From Nephila pilipes (taxonomy: Eukaryota), in assembly GCA_019974015.1 (NCBI GenBank), contig BMAW01101096.1, forward strand, positions 295,229 to 359,228: DNA of 64,000 bases, read 5' to 3'. The notes below the pieces were generated by a model. The model was not told the DNA's origin and searched no databases. It worked only from the letters and a program-made list of their open reading frames with translations. This document shows positions 391 to 60,785 of the stretch, piece after piece; the first letter of the stretch is position 1; every line of letters begins with the position of its first letter. Made by a program: the position numbers and the translations under genes.

Positions 391-3024
391 TTGTTTGTAT
401 TTACTATATATGCATACTTCTGTTTACAGATGAAGTTTTTCGACAAAATTTGTCTACTGCTTTTTCTCACAAATGTGGATTCTCGACTTAAAGAGCAACA
501 CAGACCATGCTCATTCAACCCATTATGCACATGTTCAAATGGAGGACCAGACCTAGGATCTGTATGTTGTCACAACATACCTTTTATGACAGTTCCCTCC
601 CAAATCAACAATTCTGCAATTTACATAATGAGTCTTAAAGAAAACAAATTACGCTTTCTTGAAGATAATAGTTTAAATGGAACTGGGCTATGGAAACTTC
701 AAATTAACAACAATCTTTTAACAGATTTACCCTCTAATGCTTTAGCTGGACTGGAGAAAACATTATCAATTCTAGATTTAAGTAAAAATAATTTAGTAAG
801 GATACCTAGAGAAGCAATACAGAATTTAGAAAAACTCAGTAATTTAAATTTAGCTGGCAACAAAATTACCTACTTAAACAGTGACGATTTTCGTAATCTA
901 GGTAAGACATTAAAACTTTTAGATTTGTCAGAAAATGCTCTAATGCAAGTTCAAAATGATGTATTTCGAAATATGATATCATTAGAAGTTTTAAACCTTG
1001 CGTATAATTCCATAATTTCCATAGATGACATTACATTTCACGGAGGGTTAAATAACTTAAAACATATAATTTTAACAGGAAATCAGCTGCAGCAGATTCC
1101 ATTAAATGCACTAGCTAATTTTAGAAACATTAAAATCGTGAACTTGAATGAAAATTTGATATCCAGTATATCTGAGGGAAGAGAAATAAGAAATCGCATC
1201 TATCTCGATGAATTACATCTCGAACATAATCTTATTAAAGAGCTAACAGCAGAAAGTTTTAGACTTTTCAGTCAAGTAGATCGCATTTTTCTAAAAGGAA
1301 ATCCACTCTCTATAGTTAACGACACTTTTCTGACTACTAATACAACCGAAATTTACATGCCTTACTGTTCAATATCAGTTATAACACATACTGCATTCCT
1401 CAGTTCAACACATTCACTACAAGTTCTTGATTTAAGTCACAATGAGTTAAAAGAATTTCCAGTCTTACCACTGACCAGATTGACAAAACTCTCGTTAGCT
1501 GGAAATTTGATTAAAGAAGTTGTTCCTGAAGATATAAAATACTGTGGAAATTCTTTAAAGTACTTAGATATCACAGGAACAAAAATGAGTGGTTTGTCTG
1601 AAGAGAGTATGAATTATTTACCAAACGTAAGAGAACTTTCTTTCAACAAACAATACCCTGTCGTTGGTGCGGAATCTTTACAAAATATTAGTCCCTCAAT
1701 GGAGAAACTTAACATGGTCCAATGCTCCATAAAAGTCATTGAAAATGGAGCATTTAATAGATTAAGTGGCTTAAAATCATTGGACTTATCTTACAATACA
1801 ATATCGAAAATTGGAAATACTACTTTTAAAGATATAAAGCACTCATTAGAAAAACTTATTTTGCACAGTGCTCTAAGAATATCGATATTCCCTTATAAAG
1901 CATTGAATTCACTTTCAAAGTTAGAATATTTAGATGTAAGCAGTAATGACATCCAATATCTACCATATAACTCTTTTGTTTCATTTCAGAATTTAAGGCA
2001 TTTAAATTTAAATCACAACGAATTAAAAGATTTAGATTCAAATTTTGTAAACGATATACATAACCCAAACCTTGCAGAAATAAAAGTGGCATTTAACAAA
2101 ATAACCTCTTTGAAGTCATATACTTTTCGAAATTTGAGAAGTTTGATTTATTTGCAACTAAACGATAATCTCATTGAATTCATCAGAAAATCTGCATTTC
2201 TCGATTTGGATTCGATAATGATAATTCGGTTAGAGGGCAATTCAATACAAACTATAGACAGTGAAGCCTTTCAAAATTTACCAAATATCCAAGTAATTAA
2301 TCTTGCGTACAATAAGTTATCCTCTTTTAATCTAGAAGCCTTTAATCAAGTCGGACGACTATCAACTTTAAGAATTGATGTCAATCACAACAATATCCAG
2401 AATTTAACAGGAGACTATACGGTAACACATACGTCAAGTAATATTAAGCACCTTAATTTCAGTCATAATAACATATCGTATTTGGATAGCAATTATTTAG
2501 ACCCAATAAGATTATCAGTTACTATCTTAGACTTGAGTTACAACAGACTTGTGAATTTAACAACTCTTGCTTTTACAAATATGGCTCATCTGCAAACACT
2601 GATCCTCTCAAATAATATAATTAGTAAAATAGATGAAGATGAATTTAAAGGTTTAAGATCCATACAAGTGTTAGATTTATCAATGAATAATCTAAATACT
2701 CTCCCAGAAAATTTATTTGAAAAACAAAAACAACTGAGGATATTTTTATTACATCATAATGAAATCGACGAATTACCAGAAGACATTTTTAAGGCAACTA
2801 TTCTGGAACAGATAGATTTGTCCTTTAACAACATTGAAGAATTCCCTTATTATTCTATATCTCAAATCAAAAACACTTTGCAATTTTTGAACTTAGCTGG
2901 AAATCAAATAGAAGCTCTTAATTTCAGTAGTATAATGTCTCTGCAAAATCTAAGGTACTTGAGTCTTTCACGAAATCGACTGTTTATACCCAGTTCTGAA
3001 GAAGATTTACAACTGCCAAAATTA
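391..3024 (+). CDS. chp: Chaoptin-like GPI-anchored LRR cell-adhesion protein, exon 1. A probable signal peptide MKFFDKICLLLFLTNVDS starts at the second ATG (430), followed by an LRRNT Cys cluster and about 30 leucine-rich repeats.
   Basis: Continuous 908-codon ORF with repeated LxxLxLxxNxL motifs. The N-terminus RPCSFNPLCTCSNGGPDLGSVCCHNIPF matches the chaoptin LRRNT pattern. A phase-0 GTAAGT donor follows codon L at 3022-3024. The ORF tail beyond 3024 is low-complexity intron readthrough. Confidence 0.85.
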
Positions 3025-3942
3025 GTAAGTATTACATTATTAATTATATTCAGAAAAAATAAATGTTTGTGTTTTCAATATTTAAACGCTTTATTAAATA
3101 TAATTGTAAGTATTTAAATGATTTTAAAAAATATTTACAACCAAACTGGTAAAAAGTAAATAATAATAATTTTATCAACCTCAAAATTTCTTCTATTCAT
3201 GTTTAAGCAAAATGAAATTTCTTTATTATATAAGTCGAATTGAGAAATACTTAATTAACAAATTAACAAAATAAAACATATATAAATAAAAAAAAAAAAT
3301 TATGGCTGAATTCTATAACATTGCTATTTTTCATCAAAGTAAAAATAAAATGTAATAAACAACTATGAGCTTTTGAAAATGGGAAAAAATATATATATTT
3401 GAAAAATTTAAGGGGAAAAAATGAAAAAATATTGAAATTTGTGTGACGGCATTTCAAAATATTTTAATCATAAGCTGGAGATAAAAAGTTATTAGAACAC
3501 AACATTTAAATAAAAAACTCAAAATTCATATTTTTTTGTAATGTTTTAAAGATATTTTAAATGATACTAAAAATATTAACTTATACAAATAGATTTTATT
3601 TGACACATTATTAGACCATTTTCGTAACAGTGAAATTTAAAGGTCACCAATGAGCTTATATATGTATATCCAATTCATTATATTCAATACTTTGTCTACA
3701 TATGGAAAAAGATGATGATATTAATGGGATAAATTCTACGATGATGAAAAAAATAACATTTATCTAATGCATTTTAAAAGAAATTGTTTATCATACTTTA
3801 ATACAAATAAGACTTCTAAGAAAAATTAACTATAATACATATATTTATATTGTTTTCAGTATTTTATACAAATCACAGTTTTATAGGAATATTAAAAAAT
3901 TCATAATTTTTAAATGAATTATCGTTTTTGTCTTTTTTCTAG

Positions 3943-4734
3943 ATAACACTGGATCTATCTCATAATACGATAAAAGAGCTTCCGGCATGGATAGCTAACC
4001 ATTTACCCCCCAGTCTCGAACAACTCAATTTGGCAAATACAAGTTTAGAAACTGTTCCAGCTCTAGGTTCCTGCAATATTTTAATTTTGAATCTAAGTTC
4101 CAATAGCATACAAACAGTGGAACAAGAAGAATTTGAACAACTTAAGAAACTACAAACTATAGATTTATCTAATAACTTGCTGCTAACTACTTATAATAAT
4201 GTATGGTCAAACCTTCAACATCTGAAAACACTTTATTTGCAAAAGAATCCAATACAAAAATTATTAAATAATAGTTTTATGAACATGGAAAGGCTACAAG
4301 AATTATTTATGAAAAAATTAAAATTGCAAGAAATTGACCAAGATGTTTTTCATGAATTAACAGCACTAAAAAAGGTAGAAATGGATACTTTTCCCAATAA
4401 GAATATGGATTTATCTCAAATACTTCGAAATAATCAAGGAATTCAAGAGATTCGTCTGCATGTGCAGGACAATGGATTAGATGGAATATTCAATGGGGAA
4501 CTTCCTAAATCATTAAAATTCATTGTATTGGAAGGAGAAAATTTAAAACATTTAGATGAATCAATATTTTCCTACATCCAAAGTCAAACTCTCAAGCTGA
4601 ATATTCAGAATTCAAATATAACCAAACTCTCACAGAAAGTTTTTCAAAACATGAAAGAAGTAAGGAATTTCACAGTGGAATTTATAAACAACAAATTACA
4701 GACACTTGAAAAATTATATGCAGTCGGAAAAGAG
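3943..4734 (+). CDS. chp: Chaoptin-like LRR protein, exon 2 (LRRs continue: ITLDLSHNTIKELP...).
   Basis: A polypyrimidine tract and AG at 3941-3942 precede the exon. It is in frame with the 4030-4794 ORF. Phase 0 joins ...LQLPKL|ITLDLSHN into a perfect LRR. A GTAATA donor follows at 4735. Confidence 0.8.
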
Positions 4735-5930
4735 GTAATATTAAGTAACAATTTTCATAAAATGAGTAGTTTTTTATACATCCATGAAAAATAACTATAA
4801 AAATAGTTCATTTAACTGTATAAAAAAAAATTGAAAGAACGTCTGATTAATGTAATGTTTGATGAAGATAAATTTTGGCCTATGATTTCAATTACATTTA
4901 TGGAGGGTAAAACTTAATTATGCAGCATTTTATTTAATGGCATTTTAAAAAGACTACAGCAGCGATATTTATTTACATTCAATAACAAGTTAAGTTTCAT
5001 TTAATCAGTAAAAAAACAAGTTAATATAAATTCCTTAAATATCAATTTTAAAATTAATGTTAAAATTAAACACCACTGTGTTAAATGTTTAGACGTTTTA
5101 AAGCCTAGTGAATATAAAAGAAATATATATTAACAGAATTGCTTTCAAAATTAAACCTTTTCTTTCAGTTTTAATTATTTCATAATGGCATCGGCATAAG
5201 CTTATCATTCAATGCTAATGTGATATAAATCAAACAGAACAATCAAAAAGGAAAATGTTACTTCTAAAACATTAATTAAATATCAAAATATGATTTTTTT
5301 TTATTTTACTTTATCAACAACATACATTTCAGACATTAAATTTTTTCCTACTAACTAATCATTTGACGTTCTTTATTCACTAAGCCACCTCTTTAATTAT
5401 ATGTAAACTATCTATTTCTTTCCCATTTAATATATATTTCTAAATGTAATATAACTACATAATGAGAGATTTAAGCACTTTAGTTTTGCAAATGCAAATC
5501 CAAAATACAGCGTATTTGATTTTAAATATTTAATATTTGAAGTTTTTTTCTAGAGTTATCGAAAAAAATTATTTTAATATTTCTTTCTTTTTCATTTTCT
5601 CCCTAATTAAGATGCAAATCTCTTCTAAATTGATATTTAAAGATATTCTCTCATGAATGTTTAACTTTTAATTAAAGTGCTAATCGAGTGAAAATTTTGT
5701 GATTAGCATCCGTATCACACAATACTAAGATGGGTTGTATTCGCGACAGGTGATAATGTCAATGTTATAATAGTTATAAGATAAAATTAAAATGTTGTAA
5801 GCAAAATACAGAATACGGTTTAATCACTCGAAAAATTAAGCACACATATGTAATTAAATTACGTGACAACACATCGTAGATTTTTAAGCAATATAACCTT
5901 TTCTTGAAATATATTTTTTTCCTATTACAG

Positions 5931-6254
5931 GTATCCGGAAAATACCTGAAACATTTAAAATTGTCAGGAAATCAATTGGATTGTGATTGTGAACTTTTCT
6001 GGATATGGGAATGGTTGAAAGAATATGAATACGTGAACAAATGTGAGGAAAGGATATGTGAAGAGACTTATTTACATGATTTACGAGAAACCAAATGCGT
6101 CAATATGAATAACAGATCAATCATAAATGTATTTAAAACAGATTTACAATGTGTTTCAAATGGAACTCCAGCAGAAAACCCAAAAAGTATATTACTTCAC
6201 TTCTTCATAAGCATCGTTTTCATGCTATTTTACATAAAAGTGGTTATAATCTAA
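5931..6254 (+). CDS. chp: Chaoptin-like protein, terminal exon: LRRCT (LDCDCELFWIWEWL...CEE..C) followed by a hydrophobic C-terminal tail typical of a GPI-anchor signal; stop at 6252-6254.
   Basis: Acceptor cctattacag|GTA at 5929-5930 is in frame with the 5904-6254 ORF. DLRETKCVNMNNRSIINVFKTDLQC resembles the chaoptin C-terminus. The tail ends ...SNGTPAENPKSILLHFFISIVFMLFYIKVVII*. Confidence 0.8.
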   Translation, partial: VSGKYLKHLKLSGNQLDCDCELFWIWEWLKEYEYVNKCEERICEETYLHDLRETKCVNMNNRSIINVFKTDLQCVSNGTPAENPKSILLHFFISIVFMLFYIKVVII

Positions 6255-22766: not shown

Positions 22767-23123
22767 GTGAGACTTGTTGAACAGGCCTTAAACGGTTCAG
22801 GGATGGACAACAGAAGCCCCCATGATGTGGTATTGGTTGAAGATTCTACTCGAATTCTTAGGATCCAGAAGGTGCCTCGTGACTTTTTCAACGGAAAAGA
22901 ATTGTTTAAGTCCATTACTCCAAATGAAGCTGTTGGACATGGTACTACAGTTAAAGCTGCTGTATTACCAGAAAGCACAGATAAGGGAAACAAGGGTGTG
23001 CTTTTAGTTCCTCCACTCTCACTTGGAGATGAAACTGCAAGTGGAGTCATAACTGGGAGCATTGAGAAAAATTCCGAAATTCTTTGCGGTATCTCCCGGG
23101 TGATCACATGTTCAGAGGACTAG
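22767..23123 (+). pseudogene. HSP70-family gene fragment (nucleotide-binding to substrate-binding domain junction) embedded inside the LTR-bounded element; degenerate and non-functional.
   Basis: The translation [48 protein letters not shown]...GVLLVPPLSLGDETASGVITGSIEKNSEI matches the canonical Hsp70 segment [48 protein letters not shown]...LLLDVAPLSLGIETAGGVMT. Confidence 0.75.
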
Positions 23124-23684: not shown

Positions 23685-24100
23685 TAGAGATTGACGACAA
23701 AATGCAGGATCTCGAAATTGCTCGGATTTTCCTGATACTTCAATTACAAGAGATGTTATGGAATTTTTCAGCATATTCCATGTGACTTCACACTTGTTGG
23801 GAACAGTTACAAACACGCGGAGATACAAAGTCAGAATGAATCTGCCTTTGAAGTGCAACGTAATACATATCAGTAGATTTGAAGATTTGAGATTTGTTAG
23901 TGCAAACTAGTAAGCTGGTGAGTTGAGCATAATTGAAACTGCTCTTTAATATTACAGCTATTATTAGTGATTTGCTATTTGTGTATGTGGCTTATTTGTA
24001 CAAGAGCTGTTTTTGCTCTTGTTGTGTCGCTATTTTGCTCTGCTAGCTAGTTATTATGCGAGCAGTGCTTCAACGTGTCTTGAATATGTATATTCATTTT
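23685..24100 (+). repeat. 3' LTR-like direct repeat, partner of 21915-22300.
   Basis: Sequence similarity to the 5' copy through ...tgcttcaacgtgtcttgaatat; the sequence diverges where the minisatellite starts. Confidence 0.65.
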
Positions 24101-25395
24101 ATTTTTTAGAATTGTGTATTTATTTTATTTTTAATTACGCTATTATTTGAAATTTCTAAACATATATTTATTATTTTAAAATTATGTATTCATTTTATTT
24201 TTTAAACTATACCATTTTATTTTTTAAACTATACCATTTTATTTTTTAAACTATACCATTTTATTTTTAAAATTAAGAATTTATTTTATTATATTTAATT
24301 ATGTATTTATTTCGTTTTTTAAATTATGTATGAATTTTATTTTTTAAATTACGTTTTTATTTTATTTTTAACTATGTATTTATTTTATTTTCAAATCATG
24401 CATTTATTTTATTTTCCTATTCTTGAAGTATACATTTTTTTCTTAAAACCCTGTATTTATTTTATTTTTTAATTATGTAATTATTTCATTTTTACTATGC
24501 AATTATTGTATTTATTTTATATTTAAATATGTATTCATTTTATATTTAATTGTGTATTTATATCGTTTTTAATTATGTACTTATTTTTTTATTTTAAAAT
24601 TATGTTTATTTTTTAAATTACGTAATAATTTTATTTTTTTATTATGAATTTATTTTATAATTACTTATGCATTCACTTTATATTTAATTATGCTTTTTAA
24701 TATTTAATTGTGTGCTTATATCGTTTTTTTTAACTATTTATTTTTTAATTTTTAATCATGTATTTATATCGTTTTTTGATTGCGAATTTATTTTTTAATT
24801 TTAAATTTTGCATTTATTTATTTACTTTAAAATTATGTATTTATTATATAAATTATGCATTTTTTGGAATTAATGCATTTATTTTATTTGTAATTATGAA
24901 TTTATTTCAATTTCTAAATTAAGTATTTATCTTATTTTTTAAAATAATATATTCATTTTATTTTTAATTTTGTATTTATATCATTTTCAATTACATATTT
25001 TTAAATTATGTATTTCTTTTCTTTTATTTTTTAAAAAATTTGTATTTATTTTATTTTAAAAATTATGTATTTATTTTATTTTTAAAATTATGTATTTATT
25101 TTACTTCTTAAATAATGTATTTATTTCATTTTTAAAAAATTTGTATTTATTTTATTTTTAAAATTATGTATTTATTTTATTTTTAAAATTATGTATTTAT
25201 TTTACTTCTTAAATAATGTATTTATTTCATTTTTAAAAAATAATGTACTTATTTTATTTCATAGTTTTTAAAATTATGCATTTATTTTATTTTTAAAAAT
25301 ATAATGTATATACTTTATTTTTTTATTTATTTATGTATTTATTTTATAGTTATGCAATTATTGCATTTTTAAAATTATGTATTTATATCGTCTTT

Positions 25396-25426
<31 letters not shown>

Positions 25427-25453
25427 CATATATACATATATACATATATATAC

Positions 25454-25487
<34 letters not shown>

Positions 25488-26830
25488 TACGACAAATACA
25501 TTAACTCTTTAAATTTCATGCATTTTATGGTATTTTAAAAATTATGTATTTATCGTATTTCAATAACGTATTTATCTTATTTTTTAAAATAATGTATTCA
25601 TTTTACTTTTAATTATATATTTATATCGCTTTTTAATTATGTAATTATTTTTTTAAATTGTGTATTGCTTTATTTTATTTTTTTAAAAGATATGTGTTAT
25701 TTTATTTTTAAAAGTATGTATCTATTACATATTTTTAAATTAAGTATTTATTTTATTTTTTCAAGTATTATACCTTTACTTCGGTTCTTTAAATTATTTT
25801 TTATTTTATTTTTTAAATTATGTAACTATTTAATTTTTAAATTGTGTTTTTATTTTATTTTTAAATTGTGTTTTTATTTATTTTTAAAATTATATATTTA
25901 TTTTACTTTTTAAATTATGCACTTATTTATTTTTTTAAAAAAAGGTCTTTATTTTATTTGAAATTTTTAAAATTAAGTATTTATTTTATTTTTTAAAATT
26001 ATGCATTTGATATTTTTTCAATTACATATTTATTTCCTTTTCAAAACCACATATTTATTTTTTAAAATATATATTTATTTTATTTTGTATTTTTAAATCA
26101 TATATTTATTTTATTTTTTATTTATGTATTTATTTTATTTATAAAAACTTTGTATTAAATATTTTTTGAAATTGTGTATTTATTATAACTTTTTAAATTA
26201 TGTATTTATTTTATTTTTCACACATTGTATAGTTCAATTTTTTTTCAATTATAAATTTATTTTTTTTAAATTATGTTTTTATTTTACTTTTAAATTGTAT
26301 ATTTATTTTAATTTTGAAATTAAATAAAAATTTTACTTTTAAATTTTTATTTTATTTCTATGTTTTAAATTACGTTATTACATTATTTTTTTAATTATGT
26401 ATTTATTTCATTTTGTAAAATTTTGACTTACTTCATTTTTAAGTATGTATTTTTTAATTATGCATTTATTATATTTTTAAATTATGTATTTATTTTACTC
26501 TTAAAATTATGTATTTATATTATTTTTAAATATGTATGTATTTTATTTTTAAAATAATTTTTGTTTTATTTTTTAACTATGTATTTATTTTATTTTTTAA
26601 TTACATGTCTCTTATTTTTTTAAAAAAAAATGTGAACTTATTTCATTTTTTTATTATATGCCTTAATTTTTTTTTATAAATCGTGTATTTATTTTATTTT
26701 TAAATTATGTATTATTATTTTTTTATAAATCATGTTTATTTTTAAATAATGTATTTATTATTAATATTTTTAACTTGTGTATTTATGTTTTTATTTTTAG
26801 TTATGTATTTCATTTAACTAGAATTATTTA
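24100..26830. repeat. AT-rich minisatellite/satellite array. The unit is about 26-29 bp (consensus near aattatgtatttattttatttttaaa) with a higher-order structure; for example, a ~115-bp block at 25020-25135 is repeated at 25135-25250. The array includes a (TA)n/(TATACA)n tract at 25396-25480.
   Basis: Hundreds of direct iterations of tatgtatttattttatttt variants are visible across 2.7 kb. Confidence 0.9.
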
Positions 26831-52312: not shown

Positions 52313-54378
52313 GCACGAGTATAATACGCACTCTCATTTTTACGGCCCAAAATGTGGAAAATGAGGGCGTATTATAATTACGGTATATACGATAAGATTT
52401 TACGGTATATCAAACACTTGTAAAAAACACTTCTATATTTTTCCTTTGCATACATGTATTACTTATCATTCTGTGCTATTTATTTATGAAAACCTTGAAT
52501 TTTGAAATCGGATAAATCATTTTGAATAATTCCATTTTTTATATCACAATCAACACCAAATAACAATTTGAAAACACATAACGGTCTGAAACTTACAATT
52601 AAACACTGAAACTTTTTTTAGTGGCTTCCAACAATAAGGACTATTTAAATAACTTAATATTCATGTATTTTTTAAATAACTGCACGTTAATTAAATGTAA
52701 TAGAATTACTTCATAGGAAAAAGCAGTACACATCTCATTCCTTACAAATGATCACGTCAAGCAAAAGTTCATAAGCCATGTAAGAAGCTTATATTAGCAA
52801 ACGCAAGGTGGTTATTTATTTTTATTTTATTTATTTATTTATTTTCACGTTGGATAATCTACAAGAAAAAGTTTTGTTTAATACTCAAAAAAGGGGACAT
52901 CATTAATAACTTTCACTAACTGTATACATTGGTATAATTGTCAATAGTTCAAAAGGAAGTAAATTTTGATGCTGAGAGATTAATTAATGATCTATGTTAA
53001 GGTAGTCATTCAACTTTTAAAGAGAATTCTCTCATTGCGATTGTCTCTTTTTACCTAAATGATATTCCATCATAAAATTAGCTCATTATTACTTCTCATC
53101 ATAAAATTATGTTCAAGATAAGTAAAAATTCGGCTCAAAAGTTTCTCAGTTAAGAAGTCTTAAATATAGGCCCCTAATGATAAATGAGTATCTCATGCAA
53201 ATTAGAAGATATAAAATTTACTACCCAACATTTTTCAAACATTTTTACATCAATAGATAAATACTTATTTTCCAATTATAAAAACGAAATGAAAAAATCA
53301 AAAAAATAAACATTACAAAAATATAAATAATTAAACATAGTACATTTATTGAACACAGTTACGAAAAAAGTAAATTCTAATGAACCGAAATTTTTAGATC
53401 TTTGTATTCTCAATATCTTGAAAACTCTATGTCCGAAATTCTATGCAGTTATCTTCAATACATTCTTTTGCAAAACAAAGAGAATAAAAAAGGCACATTG
53501 AAGAAAGTAACTGTTTTTATTAAAATTAAACTAGGATAAAGCTCTAACACAGATCATTAAAATTATTAAAAACTTTAAGCTATAGGGTCCATTAATGGCT
53601 AGTAAATTGAATGTTAAAATCAGTAATTGTACAAAGGCCTCTGGCAGCGAAGCCAACATGTATACATTGAAGTACAAATTGATTAATTGTTTATTAACAT
53701 CGCACTTAGAATCAGTTCGAGGGCTATTAGCGGCGAAAGTCAAAAATTTCAGCCTCTATCGAGTCACGAAAACGACACCGTTAAGCTGGCACCTTCCTCT
53801 CCAAACTTCTACATCACACAAACAGGAGGGGACTTTAAAATTTATCTTCCAGTCATAAAAAAAAATATTGCAACATTTATGTAACCTTTGTAGTTTAACA
53901 TTTAAGAGCGAAATCCTACAAATTCGTATTTATATCATGATCATATAATCGATGGCCATGTACAAATATTTAATATAAAATTGAATTGTAAGAACTCTGA
54001 TGCTGAAAAGTAGCTTTCATTATCTGTTTGTAAAATATGATGGTGTACTATTCAAAGCTAAAAGTTTCATTTCCTTACATAATGATAAAATAATTTCATG
54101 GATAAATATATTTATATAAACAAAATATAAATAGTACATGTTATAAACATAACACATTTTGAGAGTATTTAAAACAAAAATAAATAAAAGAAAATAAAGA
54201 AAGTAGTTAAATAAATATCTAAAAATCAAATTAAAATTAACAATTATGCAAATCAAACAAAAATTTACTTAAGTAATCATACAGTGTAAAAATTCAAAGC
54301 CTTTGATTTAAAAAGAAATTATTAAATCGTATCAAACAAATTTAAAACAAAGAAAAGTGTATATATATATATATCTAT

Positions 54379-54383
54379 ATATT

Positions 54384-54418
<35 letters not shown>
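54379..54418. repeat. (TA)n microsatellite immediately 5' of the mariner-MITE.
   Basis: atatatatatatatatatatatatatatatatataa. Confidence 0.9.
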
Positions 54419-54421
<3 letters not shown>

Positions 54422-54825
54422 CGATCAATAACTCCGAGATAACCCAGGGTGGCGCTCGTAGTAAACGCACCAGGTCGGGTCTTTCTAGAGTACTAACCTT
54501 TGCTTGACGTAAGTTCAAAAATTTTAAGTCGATCGGACCAGGAAAAGGTTTTTGAAAAAGGTTTTTTCCAAGTGGGTGCCGCGATTGCTTTCGATGGAAC
54601 AAAAACAGCAACGAGTCGATGATTCAGAAAGCTGTTTATCGCTATTTACTCGCAACAAAAAAGATTTCTTGCGAAAAAAAGAAAAAAAAATTGTGGAAAA
54701 GCGTTGGAACGATTGTATCACCCTAAAAGGTGATTAACAAAAGGTGTTATGTTGATGAATAAAAAAAAATTTTGCAAAAAAAATGTTGTTTTCAATGTTA
54801 GACTCGGGAGTTATTGATCGATGTG
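54418..54825 (+). mobile_element. About 400-bp internally deleted mariner-like element (MITE-like). It has ~20-bp TIRs (atcgatcaataactccgag ... ctcgggagttattgatcgat) and retains only the transposase N-terminal helix-turn-helix (HTH) coding segment (54552-54737).
   Basis: Perfect-looking inverted termini are present at 54419-54438 and 54806-54825. The internal translation FSKWVPRLLSMEQKQQRVDDSESCLSLFTRNKKDFL matches the mariner HTH region (RWVPH.L...QK..RV..S.ELL.R......FL). Confidence 0.75.
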
Positions 54826-55364
54826 TTAATTACTGAAGTTGAGATGATTGTGAATCCTTTAAGTTTAAACACACTTTTCTCAGTACAGAGGCTGGGACAG
54901 AATTTTAATTATATTATCTCCATTTTTTGCTTTTCCATAATTCTTTCACTTGAGATTTGATTTGTTTTTTGGGTAGCTTTGCGTTGAAATTATGTGTAAT
55001 GTTTAATTTATGGCTTATATTTATTTAGAATTAATATTATTATGTATAAATTGTATTTCAGTAAATATATGGCTTTTTTGATAAGATATTTTGTATGTTT
55101 TAAATTAGGATAATATTTTTAACCAATTATTTTGATACTTTACTGATTTTTTTCAAGTCTATAGTATTTGTAGTGAGTGTTTTAATTTTAAAAAAATATT
55201 TCGTTTTTAGTGATTATAATTTGTAATTTAGCTTGAATTTGTGTTATTTAAAATTATGTCTAATTAATATTAATAATAATATATATTTAGAATTGATAAA
55301 GCATTACTATATACTATGAAATAGCACGCGTAAACATCTTATGGATATGTTATTACAGCAATGT

Positions 55365-55408
<44 letters not shown>

Positions 55409-56929
55409 CATATATATAATTACATCCATTTTAACAGTCTGTGATTGAACGAATACATTATTCTGTTCCATCAAGCAAACTCATTAATTAATAAATCAAT
55501 CACATCTCAATATTGGGAGTCAGTGATTGCGGTTTTTAATGACGCAAGAGCTAGGTGTGGCTCTGCTGCGCCAAAACGAAGTGTAATTGTGATCTAGAAA
55601 TTTGGAAAAAAGGAAAAAATTGTTTGACAAAAGGAGGATCAGAAATAGGTAAGGAGCGTTAAGGTGTCCCGAGAGCGTGTCATCCATGTTTACCAGGTGG
55701 TAAACCCCATAGGAAAGAAAAAGATTATTAGGGTTACACGAAAGTAAGCCCATAGGATCCAACTCAGTGTTGGTGTAAAGTTCTTCACATAATTGTTTTC
55801 TATTTATTGCAAATTTCCATCTTACTTTGTATCGCTTGTACCAGAAACGTTTTCTGTCATAATTTTCCCACTATTTTGTGTTTTCTATTTTTGAGCAAAA
55901 CAAAAACAAAAAAAATTAAACGAGCTCAGATTCGTGAAAGTTCATCTTCTCCAAAGCGAGTTCACTACAATATGAAATACAGAGGAAGATTCAACATTTG
56001 ATTTAGAAGCTATTCCTGAACATTATTTCTCCTCAGATGGTAAAAACTATGAAATTGTGTCATATTTCTTCAACAACGTAACGATTCATTTTCGTCAATA
56101 TAAAAACGACACTCATGGGGATCTATTTTCGACTAAAAAGGGTGTTGCGTTATCACCTTTTCTTTGGCAACACCTTGTAAATAAAACAAAATATTTAGAT
56201 ACATAATTAATTTGAAAACATGTCACTATACAGGACTCTCTGGTGCTAAAAGGGCTTTTTTCATAAATTTGTCTCATCTGCATGAGTTTCAAATAAGTCT
56301 GAATGGACTGAAATGCATTACATTTTAGAAAAAGTTACAGAGAGTACAACATCTCTTTTCAAAAGTATTTTTGTTGATATGTTAAAGAAAAAAGTTAAAA
56401 TGTAAAACTCGATACTTATTAGACCCTATCAATGCAGAAGTTGAGTTAGTGTTCACAAATTCAATGATTGAACTTAGTGTAACCACTTAATGAATTTCAC
56501 TAAATAATGATTTTGAATGCAATGGCTGTTTTCATAACTATACAAATCGACTAGGTTCTGAGTGTTTAATTTGGAACTATGAAATGACTTTATGTTTATA
56601 TGGTGGTCTTACCCTTTCCCCCTTAAACTTCAAACAATTAGCTACGGAATTTTTACAAAGAAATTCTCAATTGTCCAATTATGTAAACAAATCTTTCTTA
56701 AAAAAACTAAATATGTCTGTTATGGTTAAAAATGCAAAACAAATGTATATAACTACTGATAAAACCCTTAAATAAATGTTTGTTTTACTTAATATTTTGA
56801 AAGTTTTATCGTGTTATTATTCGATATTTCATAAGAAGTTTATATAAAGCATATTTCAGGGGTACAATGTATTCGAAAATTTGTCTTTTTAAACGTTAAT
56901 ATTTAACCATAATTCGTTTTTAATGAGAA

Positions 56930-58255: not shown

Positions 58256-60785
58256 TGAAAAAAAAATCGACAATCTCAATTGAGATTATTATATATTAGC
58301 TACATTAATTAATTATTTGAAATCTTAAAGAGCCATTCACAATTATCCCTTTTTCGACGATAATACTTAAAAATGTAATAATTCAGGGGGAAAAAATCAA
58401 GAGACTTATAACATTCAAAGAAATTTTAAGAATATATCAAATAGAATTATCACAAGTTTCATTTTTGTATAAAAATTGCATTACTCAAAAATATTTGTAT
58501 TTGACTCCAGTTTGAAATTTCAATAAATGGATGAAATCTTCTATTAATTACAGATTTTTATTCCATATCAGTTTTAATATGTTTAATTTCCCAAACAAAC
58601 AATTAACATATCCAATGAAAAAGAAAAGGAATGATGTATCTTACTTGTTTTCAAAAACTTATTTTTTGTGCTTAATAGGGCATTTTCTTTTACAGTAGAA
58701 TCAAGTTTTCTTTTCATTCCAGTTAAACTGGGACACCTGTAAAGATAAAAACATACTAGAATAAACAAATAAATGTATATAAACTAAAATCGTGCATTGA
58801 AATTTGGAACCATGAAATAATCAGCAGTATTTTTAATTATTTTTCATTTATCTTGATCTCAACATCTTGTAACTAATTTAGTTTTATAAACAATTATCAC
58901 GTGGTAAATATTTAGTTGATAAATTTCATAAAAAAAAAAAAACATGTTGCTTTAGCACGAATTCAAAATAATCACATTAAAAATGTTAATGGGATGTAAT
59001 TACTTGCTCTTAAAAAACATAACCGTAGCTTTTTTAAAAAATAACAGAAATATGTTCCATAAGTCCATCATTGTGAAAAAAAATTGCTATTTTAACGCAT
59101 AACACACTTCAGACAATTTATAAAAATGCAAAGTTTATGAGAAAAGTAGAATGTATACAGAATTGATCTCTCGTTTCACAAGGTGTTATAACTACACAAA
59201 TTAATAATATCCACAACGTTAATTAGTGATTCGCTGAGAATTCAATTCCTCTAATGCTGAAGATACTAACTTAGCTCGGAACACATTTCCAGAATTTTTA
59301 AAAAACTCATCTCAAAGTTCATAAAAGTCAGTGCGGTTATGATACATATATCCGTTTATCATACAGTTTCTTTAAAATTTACAAACTTCCTATATGGGTG
59401 TGATCCAAAAAGTTTGGCAACAGATGATCTTCCTAAGGCGAATTAGTATTATTATTGCACCATTTGCTTAACAACGGCAAAACAAAGTTTAACACTGATT
59501 CATAGGTTAGTTTGGATTTGGCAGCCATTTGCTGCCAATTAAAATTCAACTACTGTCGTGTCAAGTTTTCGTCGTCATTTTACATCGAGTTGTTTCCGTC
59601 CATGTAACCTTGGTTCATCATTACACATTGGAAACCAAACAACAACAAAAACAACGTGTTGCTTCCGGTGAATCTTCTCTAAGCAGGCGAAATCGATTTT
59701 ATTGGCAGGAAAAGTTATGAAGACGATTTTTTGGGACGCATGAAGGGCGTCATACTCATTGATTTCTTAGAAAAAAAAGGAAACGATCAATGGACAATAC
59801 TACAGTCAGTTGTCCTTTTCCCATTTTATATCCCTAACACATGTATCTTTTGAACTCGGTAAAAGTGCAATTTTTCATTCCTACACGCAAAATTAAGACC
59901 CCACTAGGCATTACAATATAAAAAACAAAGTACGGAACACATTTTACACGATAAAAAATGTATTGGTTCAAACTGAAATGAGAAGAAAAATAAAATATAT
60001 ACTATTTTCAATACAGCAGTAAAGTCAAATAAGCTTGTAATATTAAAAATTGGAAAAATTGTCTGAAAAAGTGTTCCCGGTTTGGATCCTTCCCAGATAA
60101 CAAATTCGTTCGTGATGTTCCTTAGATTCGGACAAGAAAGGTCAAGCAATATTTCTGTATCCCATGAACATTAGGGTCAAGTCTGACCTTATAAGAATCC
60201 GATTTCCTGGGAACCAAAATCACCCACACACAAAACTGGGTTTTTTGAAGGGGAAAAATGCCCGGAATTAATGTGTCTAAATATCGTACAACTCTGTTAT
60301 AGTGCAGTTATGGGTGTAAGGAATTTATTATAAACCCCTTGCTAATTTGTAGATCTTTAAATGCCGAGCACACTTAGGCGTAAATAAAAACACCTTATCG
60401 GTACGGTGGAAAGCAAATATAAGAAATTGAATAACTGGATTAGTTTTTAAAATGTTTTGTGTCAAACGTTGCAAATTATTTAAATCAGAAAATTTTGAGC
60501 TTGAAGGCGCTATTATTATTACATAAAGCTCCATGTCACTTGCACGATTTGAATCATCCCAACGTCAAAATAGTGTTCCTACCACATAACACTACTTTGT
60601 TGCTCTAACTTTTGGATCAATGTTTTATTTATACCACTGGTTCTCAACGGAGCGGAAGTGATCCCCGGGGATTTCCCATGTCCTCTCTTCTTTCAACGCC
60701 GATAATTGTGCTTCCGTTATACAAATAAAAGCAAATAATTCGAGATAAAAACAACGTTTTTATATGGTGGCAAAGTTTATTTAAA

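Follow-up and report, generated by a model that had tools for sequence, protein, structure and literature searches.

A probable doubly deleted DD34D mariner derivative beside a (TA)n microsatellite in Nephila pilipes

Introduction

Could a mariner remnant of only 407 bp, bounded by inverted repeats and lying against a (TA)n microsatellite in the genome of the spider Nephila pilipes, still act as a mobile MITE? The question arises from the initial annotation of a 64-kb stretch of DNA (the whole of which is called the window below), where such a unit was described as a mariner-derived MITE with intact terminal inverted repeats (TIRs) that might be mobilised in trans. Based on the comparisons reported here, window 54420-54826 is best read as a dead, non-autonomous, doubly internally deleted DD34D mariner, which is probably immobile and whose precursor form is shared with a second locus; we put the probability of this reading at about 0.8. 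As such the 407-bp unit is an ordinary object, a fresh instance of a well-described kind, and internal deletion is the main documented source of non-autonomous mariners and MITEs (PMC4161770; PMC3814204).

The unit, which encodes no functional domain, is situated about 48 kb downstream of the chaoptin gene, in DNA without long ORFs. Its G+C content is 37%, against 25% in its flanks, and the 64-kb window as a whole is AT-rich (about 27% G+C).

The full-length relatives

The relatives of the unit were reached from a protein search, which led from mariner transposase fragments to the contigs that carry them. The full-length relatives are 1294 bp long, with 30-bp TIRs, TA duplications and a transposase of 349 aa. 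An uninterrupted 349-aa ORF between full ends is present in L007 and L008 (Logan) and in L009 (ENA), and L003 (Logan) is near-full-length with two in-frame stops. The intact protein could be aligned end to end with the Mos1 transposase (PDB 3HOS, E=2e-55); Pfam recognises Transposase_1 (PF01359, E=8e-24) and DDE_3 in it, while HTH_48 and HTH_32 fall marginally below the cut-offs. The catalytic triad consists of D158, D252 and D287, the second and third of which are 34 residues apart, and therefore the intact relatives are canonical DD34D mariners. They resemble Mos1, another DD34D mariner, in their length of about 1.3 kb, TIRs of about 30 bp, TA duplication, HTH_48 plus Transposase_1/DDE_3 architecture and D,D(34)D signature, whereas the window copy has no functional domain left. 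By score, Mos1, which is a member of the mauritiana subfamily, is about as distant from the intact family as the catalytic domain of SETMAR/Hsmar1.

When proteins are clustered at 90% identity or more, the intact transposase (P0008) falls into a group of 51, which come from many unrelated samples of Logan and ENA; the N. pilipes gene models GFT80002.1 and GFT92048.1 are in this group too. Such a distribution of a near-identical parent lineage across many unrelated samples is typical of horizontally spreading mariners. The closest named proteins in the databases, 'SETMAR-like' proteins of ants and a Caligus 'DD34D transposase', share 72-73% identity with it, and fly proteins are also found at about 72%.

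The same lineage has given rise to other short forms. One of them (L014:53-528, JGI Ga0153987_1007832) is a 476-bp derivative with other breakpoints and about 25 nt of filler, and another (L016:97-627, JGI Ga0153975_1028922) is a 531-bp derivative with perfect 30-nt TIRs and breakpoints unlike those of the window copy. Since the breakpoints of both differ from those in the window, miniaturisation is frequent and independent in this lineage. The DNA downstream of the L014 derivative contains a sequence that resembles a tRNA (about 850-930), as well as a unit of about 330 bp in repeated copies. A scan of viral contigs with the TIR pattern gave no match, nor did a scan of the JGI metagenomes with an internal 20-mer. 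The same 20-mer matched two bacterial sequences among the prokaryotic genomes, which were rejected as chance matches because only 20-22 nt agree.

Structure of the 407-bp unit

The blocks and deletions of the window copy were mapped by blastn and pairwise alignment to the intact L007 element (coordinates 1-1294, ORF 180-1229), and three collinear blocks could be recognised. Block 1, which comprises the left TIR remnant and part of the 5' UTR, aligns L007 5-131 with window 54420-54547 on the forward strand, with 17 mismatches and 6 gaps; the 5' UTR remnant within it (54444-54541, forward strand, about L007 31-131) is the most diverged part of the unit, and its differences fall in two patches. 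Block 2 holds transposase codons 112-152 and aligns L007 514-634 with window 54553-54673 on the forward strand, with a single mismatch in 121 positions. Block 3 consists of the last ~17 codons, the 3' UTR and the right TIR, and aligns L007 1168-1294 with window 54686-54826, with 5 mismatches and 3 gaps.

Two internal deletions separate these blocks. Deletion 1 (L007 132-513, 382 bp) has taken the remainder of the 5' UTR together with the start codon, codons 1-111 and hence both HTH motifs. Deletion 2 (L007 635-1167, 533 bp) has taken codons 153 to about 329, and D158, D252 and D287 have been lost with them.

The coding pieces that are left are thus residues 112-152 and about 333-345 of the 349-aa transposase. 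The former (MKKVFSKWVPRLLSMEQKQQRVDDSESCLSLFTRNKKDFLR, 54553-54673, forward strand) shows 99.2% DNA identity to L007/L008 and L003 by blastn, and tblastn places residues 112-153 (42 aa) at 95% identity, with the C-terminal residues matching too. Together with the TIR consensus described below, these matches bear out the mariner origin that had been claimed for the unit. Residues 112-152 (MKKVFSKWVPRLL...KKDFLR) follow HTH_48 (3-51) and HTH_32 (40-102) and precede DDE_3 (155-309); they represent the inter-domain linker with its WVPRLL motif (WVPHEL-type) and the first residues of the catalytic domain, and stop 6 residues short of the first catalytic Asp. The claim that only an HTH coding stub is retained has therefore to be reversed: the HTH region is what was deleted, and linker, catalytic-domain start and C-terminal codons were kept.

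The C-terminal codons (..VEKRWNDCITLKGD, 54686-54733, forward strand) are in frame with the 112-152 piece. They are followed by a 13-bp imperfect tandem duplication (TAACAAAAGGTGT, 54734-54746, forward strand; diagnostic string AAAGGTGATTAACAAAAGGTGTTATG), which creates a stop right after LKGD. After it come the last four codons (YVDE and the stop), which are no longer in frame, and the 3' UTR (54747-54796, forward strand). Because the two coding pieces happen to share a frame, a 61-aa chimeric ORF spans 54552-54737; this is all that is left of the transposase in the unit, and it is a meaningless product.

The divergence from the intact relatives is distributed unevenly, with 17 mismatches in about 125 positions of the 5' UTR (13.6%), 1 in 121 of the coding piece (0.8%) and 5 in about 128 of the 3' end (Fisher p=9e-5 and 0.007). 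The 5' differences form two indel-associated patches that are found in none of the 20 fetched loci. In addition, both TIRs of the window copy carry a private G-to-C change (AATAAG to AATAAC), which no other end has. The uneven divergence and the private TIR change may reflect an N. pilipes sublineage or complex repair patches, and no simple history explains the contrast between 5' UTR and coding piece.

State of the termini

The TIR consensus of the family, derived from about 20 related ends, is a 30-nt sequence preceded by TA, that is, TA followed by ACACATGGATCAATAAGTCCCGAGACTAAC, or in degenerate form TA followed by ACACAT(G/C)G(A/T)TCAATAAGTCCCGAGACTAAC. Of these ends, 14 come from a metagenome scan, the pattern of which left the first three bases and the flanking TA free. 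TA precedes all of the related ends, and it is present on both sides in the relatives L009, L014, L016 and L018. Thus the TIR does recur at other loci, at about 20 ends or more.

In the window, a 16-nt exact inverted repeat, ATCGATCAATAACTCC, pairs 54420-54435 with 54807-54822, and it occurs nowhere else in the 64 kb. It extends to 19 matches in 20 positions with one 1-nt indel, in agreement with the inverted repeats of about 20 bp reported initially. The right TIR is longer than this repeat: it is a complete 30-nt TIR on the reverse strand (54797-54826, reverse complement ACACATCGATCAATAACTCCCGAGTCTAAC), followed by the TA of a presumed target-site duplication (54827-54828) and then by unique sequence, ATTACTGAAG. 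The length of about 407 bp given earlier is right if the terminus is placed at 54826, 4 nt past the end of the repeat as first drawn.

The left TIR is a remnant (ATCGATCAATAACTCCGAGATAAC, 54420-54443, forward strand), which corresponds to consensus positions 5-30 in an alignment of 11 ends. Its terminal ACAC is absent, with microsatellite TATA in its place, and two inner bases are gone (CCC to CC and GACT to GAT), which turns TCCCGAGACTAAC into TCCGAGATAAC. In an ungapped comparison, the left end differs from the 26-nt consensus at more than 3 positions. The TA on this side (54418-54419) sits within the (TA)n tract and the TIR tip is missing, so that it is uninformative on target-site duplication. 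Consequently, of the 'intact TIRs' only the right one stands, complete and with its TA, while the left one lacks ACAC and two inner bases.

Two other explanations of the left end can be set aside. If ACAC had become part of the TA repeat by point mutation, transversions would be needed at 4/4 positions, and loss or overwriting of 4 nt is simpler. A true left end upstream of the (TA)n tract is not found either, since the sequence before the tract (AAAGAAAAGTG) contains no TAACAC.

Cleavage and strand transfer by mariner transposases take place at the very terminal nucleotides, as known from the biochemistry of Mos1 and Hsmar1 and from the 3HOS complex. Since the left tip is gone and two inner bases of the left TIR are missing, the window copy is, as far as can be judged from its sequence, most likely no longer mobilisable, and the suggestion that it is a plausible substrate for trans-mobilisation is weakened.

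Origin of the deletions

Junction 1 reads GATCGGACCAG, GAAAAGGTTTTT and GAAAAAGGTTTTTTCC in succession (diagnostic string GATCGGACCAGGAAAAGGTTTTTGAAAAAGGTTTT). The filler GAAAAGGTTTT(T) at 54542-54552 (forward strand), about 12 nt, marks the 382-bp deletion and is an imperfect copy of GAAAAAGGTTTTTT, the sequence directly to its right; the breakpoints have about 4 nt in common (GAAA). Junction 2 reads GATTTCTTGCG, AAAAAAA and then GAAAAA...TTG.GGAAAAGCG (diagnostic string GATTTCTTGCGAAAAAAAGAAAAAAAAATTGTGGAAAAGCG), where the A-rich filler AAAAAAAGAAAA (54674-54685, forward strand) marks the 533-bp deletion.

Short fillers, one of them clearly templated, combined with microhomology are the classic mark of interrupted, template-switching repair of an excision gap, and P, Mos1-like and Ac/Ds elements are established cases of such abortive gap repair. 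Since the filler of junction 1 copies neighbouring sequence and that of junction 2 is short and A-rich, each deletion would be explained if repair of the double-strand gap after an excision had slipped on its template and been broken off. The proposed order of events is that the catalytic core was lost first, which would have produced a deletion form of about 0.8 kb, with the 13-bp duplication adding a stop. A full-length partner would then have mobilised this form in trans, on one occasion or more, and the copy in the window would later have lost the HTH region to give the 407-bp form.

The (TA)n tract: target or product?

The 5' end of the unit adjoins an imperfect (TA)30 microsatellite at 54360-54419, for which TRF reports 30 copies with 87% matches, so that both TRF and the sequence itself agree with the description of a (TA)n tract next to the element. 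The length of 40 bp given for it needs correction: the pure run is (TA)16.5 (54387-54419, 33 nt), which stops directly at 54420, and the 40 bp also counts TATTCAAA (about 54380-54386), which breaks the repeat. Farther from the element the tract (54360-54386) is interrupted (TC, TTCAAA), and the last TA (54418-54419) stands where the left target-site duplication would be. A second tract, (AT)26 at 55367-55418, lies 540 bp downstream and is the source of trivial long 'inverted repeats' between the two tracts.

Mariner elements integrate at TA. There are eight tracts of (TA)10 or longer in the window, and only 2.6% of its TA dinucleotides are in tracts of at least 6 units; therefore, chance adjacency of element and microsatellite is unlikely. 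The window copy is also not the only such case. In the L016 derivative, (TA)13 stands against the 5' end, with the ACAC tip intact, and TA plus unique DNA is found opposite. Altogether 2 of the 16 insertion sites adjoin (TA)n, with P ~0.06 under random TA choice. In both insertions the repeats are on one side only, and the opposite side has TA and unique DNA.

With moderate confidence, we favour an intermediate history. The insertion site would have been the final TA of a short piece of DNA that was already rich in TA; with the element in place, the pure (TA)16 next to it would have expanded, and slippage or deletion at the unstable tract boundary would have removed ACAC from the left TIR.

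It is possible, if on balance somewhat doubtful, that the element jumped instead into a long pre-existing (TA)n tract as its preferred target, and that nothing of the tract grew from the duplication. The integration of mariner at TA, the small share of window TA in tracts of (TA)6 or longer and the independent insertion L016 beside (TA)13 are all consistent with it, and the distal interruptions suggest that the tract is old. However, the repeats are one-sided in both cases, whereas a random hit inside 13-17 units should leave repeats on both sides, the chance of an edge hit being about 2/n for each insertion; moreover, the part of the tract proximal to the element is pure and presumably the youngest.

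The opposite extreme, that the tract grew wholly from the TA target-site duplication after insertion into non-repetitive DNA, we regard as unlikely. It would account for the one-sided layout in both the window and L016 and for the pure run directly against the element, and the tract has indeed changed since insertion, as it replaces the TIR tip. Nevertheless, the right-hand TA is unexpanded in both cases, the upstream part (54360-54386) is already TA-rich with old-looking interruptions, and most of the other sites have A/T-rich flanks of the ATA|TA type, in which no expansion is seen.

A more general and quite improbable idea is that insertions of this mariner lineage nucleate one-sided (TA)n tracts at their 5' ends and that a growing tract can erode the TIR tip. 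If true, this would be a host-independent route by which short mariners seed microsatellites and are then inactivated by them. The two independent insertions at (TA)n edges thus leave a small follow-up question, target choice versus microsatellite birth. Micron of rice, a transposable element that targets (TA)n microsatellites and has the microsatellite on both sides, is likewise tied to (TA)n, but the tract in the window is on one side only.

The second N. pilipes locus and the status as a MITE

GFT92048.1 (177 aa) is encoded on another contig of N. pilipes, which is 308,727 bp long; the contig with chaoptin has 490,673 bp. Its N-terminal HTH region is intact; past ...KKDFLR it runs EKKKNWKKKKDLEQHWNDCITLKGD and then stops, and the window ORF reads ...KKDFLRKKEKKIVEKRWNDCITLKGD and then stops, so that both end at the same residue, after LKGD. 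The back-translation of GFT92048.1, CGA GAA AAA AAG AAA AAT TGG..., agrees with the window sequence CGAAAAAAAGAAAAAAAAATTGTGG apart from the poly-A and single-base indels. Judging from this protein alignment and back-translation, the two loci seem to have the catalytic-core deletion, its filler and the early stop in common as derived characters. Since the second locus has the shared deletion and stop together with the HTH region, a precursor of about 0.8 kb would have been copied at least once, and we infer that the window copy is a further-deleted descendant of that form. Segmental duplication instead of transposition could also be the source of the two loci.

The 407-bp form has so far been found at this locus alone: junction 1 was found nowhere else in the window or in the protein collections. 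The window contains no second copy and no solo TIR. None of the eight junction-spanning ORFs had an exact match in a collection of 15 billion proteins. When the 61-aa chimeric ORF was searched exhaustively with HMMER, 275 hits were obtained, without a protein representative that shares the junction; in the nine hits that were checked, those with extended or near-full query coverage, the alignments only run on into the normal FLRRYVTMDETW.

Is the 407-bp unit, then, a member of a truly amplified N. pilipes MITE family, still mobilisable by a resident full-length mariner? This seems improbable. It is true that the unit is short, without coding capacity and equipped with TIRs and TA flanks, that its coding remnant is 99% identical to intact elements, so that the lineage should be young, and that the core deletion is common to a second locus; in addition, L014 and L016 are short derivatives of the lineage with perfect ends, and the left TIR retains most of its transposase-binding part. 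Against this, the left TIR is without the four terminal bases at which cleavage and strand transfer occur and without two inner bases, the searches of the window and of the protein collection described above returned neither a second copy nor the same junction (0/8 ORFs), and the N. pilipes transposase gene models seen are truncated only, at 194 and 177 aa. A literature search returned nothing relevant on mariner in Nephila pilipes or on the TIR strings.

In the end, the unit is short, non-coding and bounded by TIRs as a MITE is, but a MITE also keeps both termini intact for a partner transposase, and here the left one is damaged. The designation that was first given is justified only in a weak sense: the precursor deletion form of about 0.8 kb is present at two loci, while the 407-bp form is present at one.

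The weakest alternative, that the inverted repeat is fortuitous or that the unit is only the terminal fragment of a larger degraded element, could draw on nothing but the silence of Pfam on the raw fragment translations of the unit (which returned noise only), and it is ruled out because chance would produce only about 6e-5 exact 16-nt inverted pairs in 416 bp, because the three internal blocks and both ends are collinear with and align to both ends of the full-length elements, and because the flanks have no mariner similarity.

Comparison with known systems

Sublineages of mariner-derived MITEs have been described in Drosophila, where copies of 460-560 bp, for example the 526-bp Dromar5eug, are homologous over their whole length to a full-length mariner and arose by internal deletion (PMC4161770). 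The unit in the window resembles them as a short internal-deletion form, but only its first-step deletion is shared by two loci; compared with MITEs of the Dromar5eug type, the 407-bp form is a singleton so far and one of its TIRs is damaged. In Aedes aegypti, the autonomous Tc1/mariner element Ozma, which is DD37E, is the source of three MITE families, Gnome, Elf and Goblin, that arose when internal segments were deleted between short sites of homology (PMC3814204). The likeness lies in the several miniaturisations of one lineage, represented here by the window copy, L014 and L016. In contrast, the window lineage is DD34D, the Ozma MITEs are high-copy and identical, and the Ozma junctions have 6-8 bp of microhomology, where those in the window combine about 4 nt of microhomology with filler.

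Deleted forms reportedly exist for Botmar1 of Bombus terrestris as well. Like that element, the human mariner MITE MiHsmar1 (named in PMC4161770) offers a parallel in the occurrence of non-autonomous mariner derivatives beside longer copies, although subfamilies and hosts differ in both cases.

For annotation, the region is best masked as a degenerate mariner deletion derivative, being neither a gene nor an active MITE. With the order of events proposed above, the locus would document a stepwise miniaturisation in a spider genome, from the full-length element through the core-deleted form of about 0.8 kb to the 407-bp form.

Other features of the window

The chaoptin gene, which encodes an LRR protein, is represented by exons at 391-3117, 4030-4794 and 5904-6254 on the forward strand, and its first long exon (391-3117) is 100% identical to the NCBI entry 'chaoptin [Nephila pilipes]', over an 825-aa stretch of the protein. 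This identity marks the window as DNA of that spider, the giant golden orb-weaver. An HSP70 fragment was detected at 22767-23123 on the forward strand (PF00012, E=2e-15, profile positions 312-420 of 599). It is located in an island of 40% G+C (22-24 kb), where ORFs are open on both strands, and it is probably a pseudogene fragment.

The mariner remnant nearest to the 407-bp unit is unrelated to it and 4.7 kb off. This degenerate mariner-like sequence (59577-59812, forward strand) has 35-40% identity to residues 150-227 of the intact transposase, contains stops and a frameshift, and is a member of another, older family. In addition, the region 24001-26000 has a G+C content of 12% and an excess of T over A (AT skew -0.30), and contains three short (TA)n tracts.
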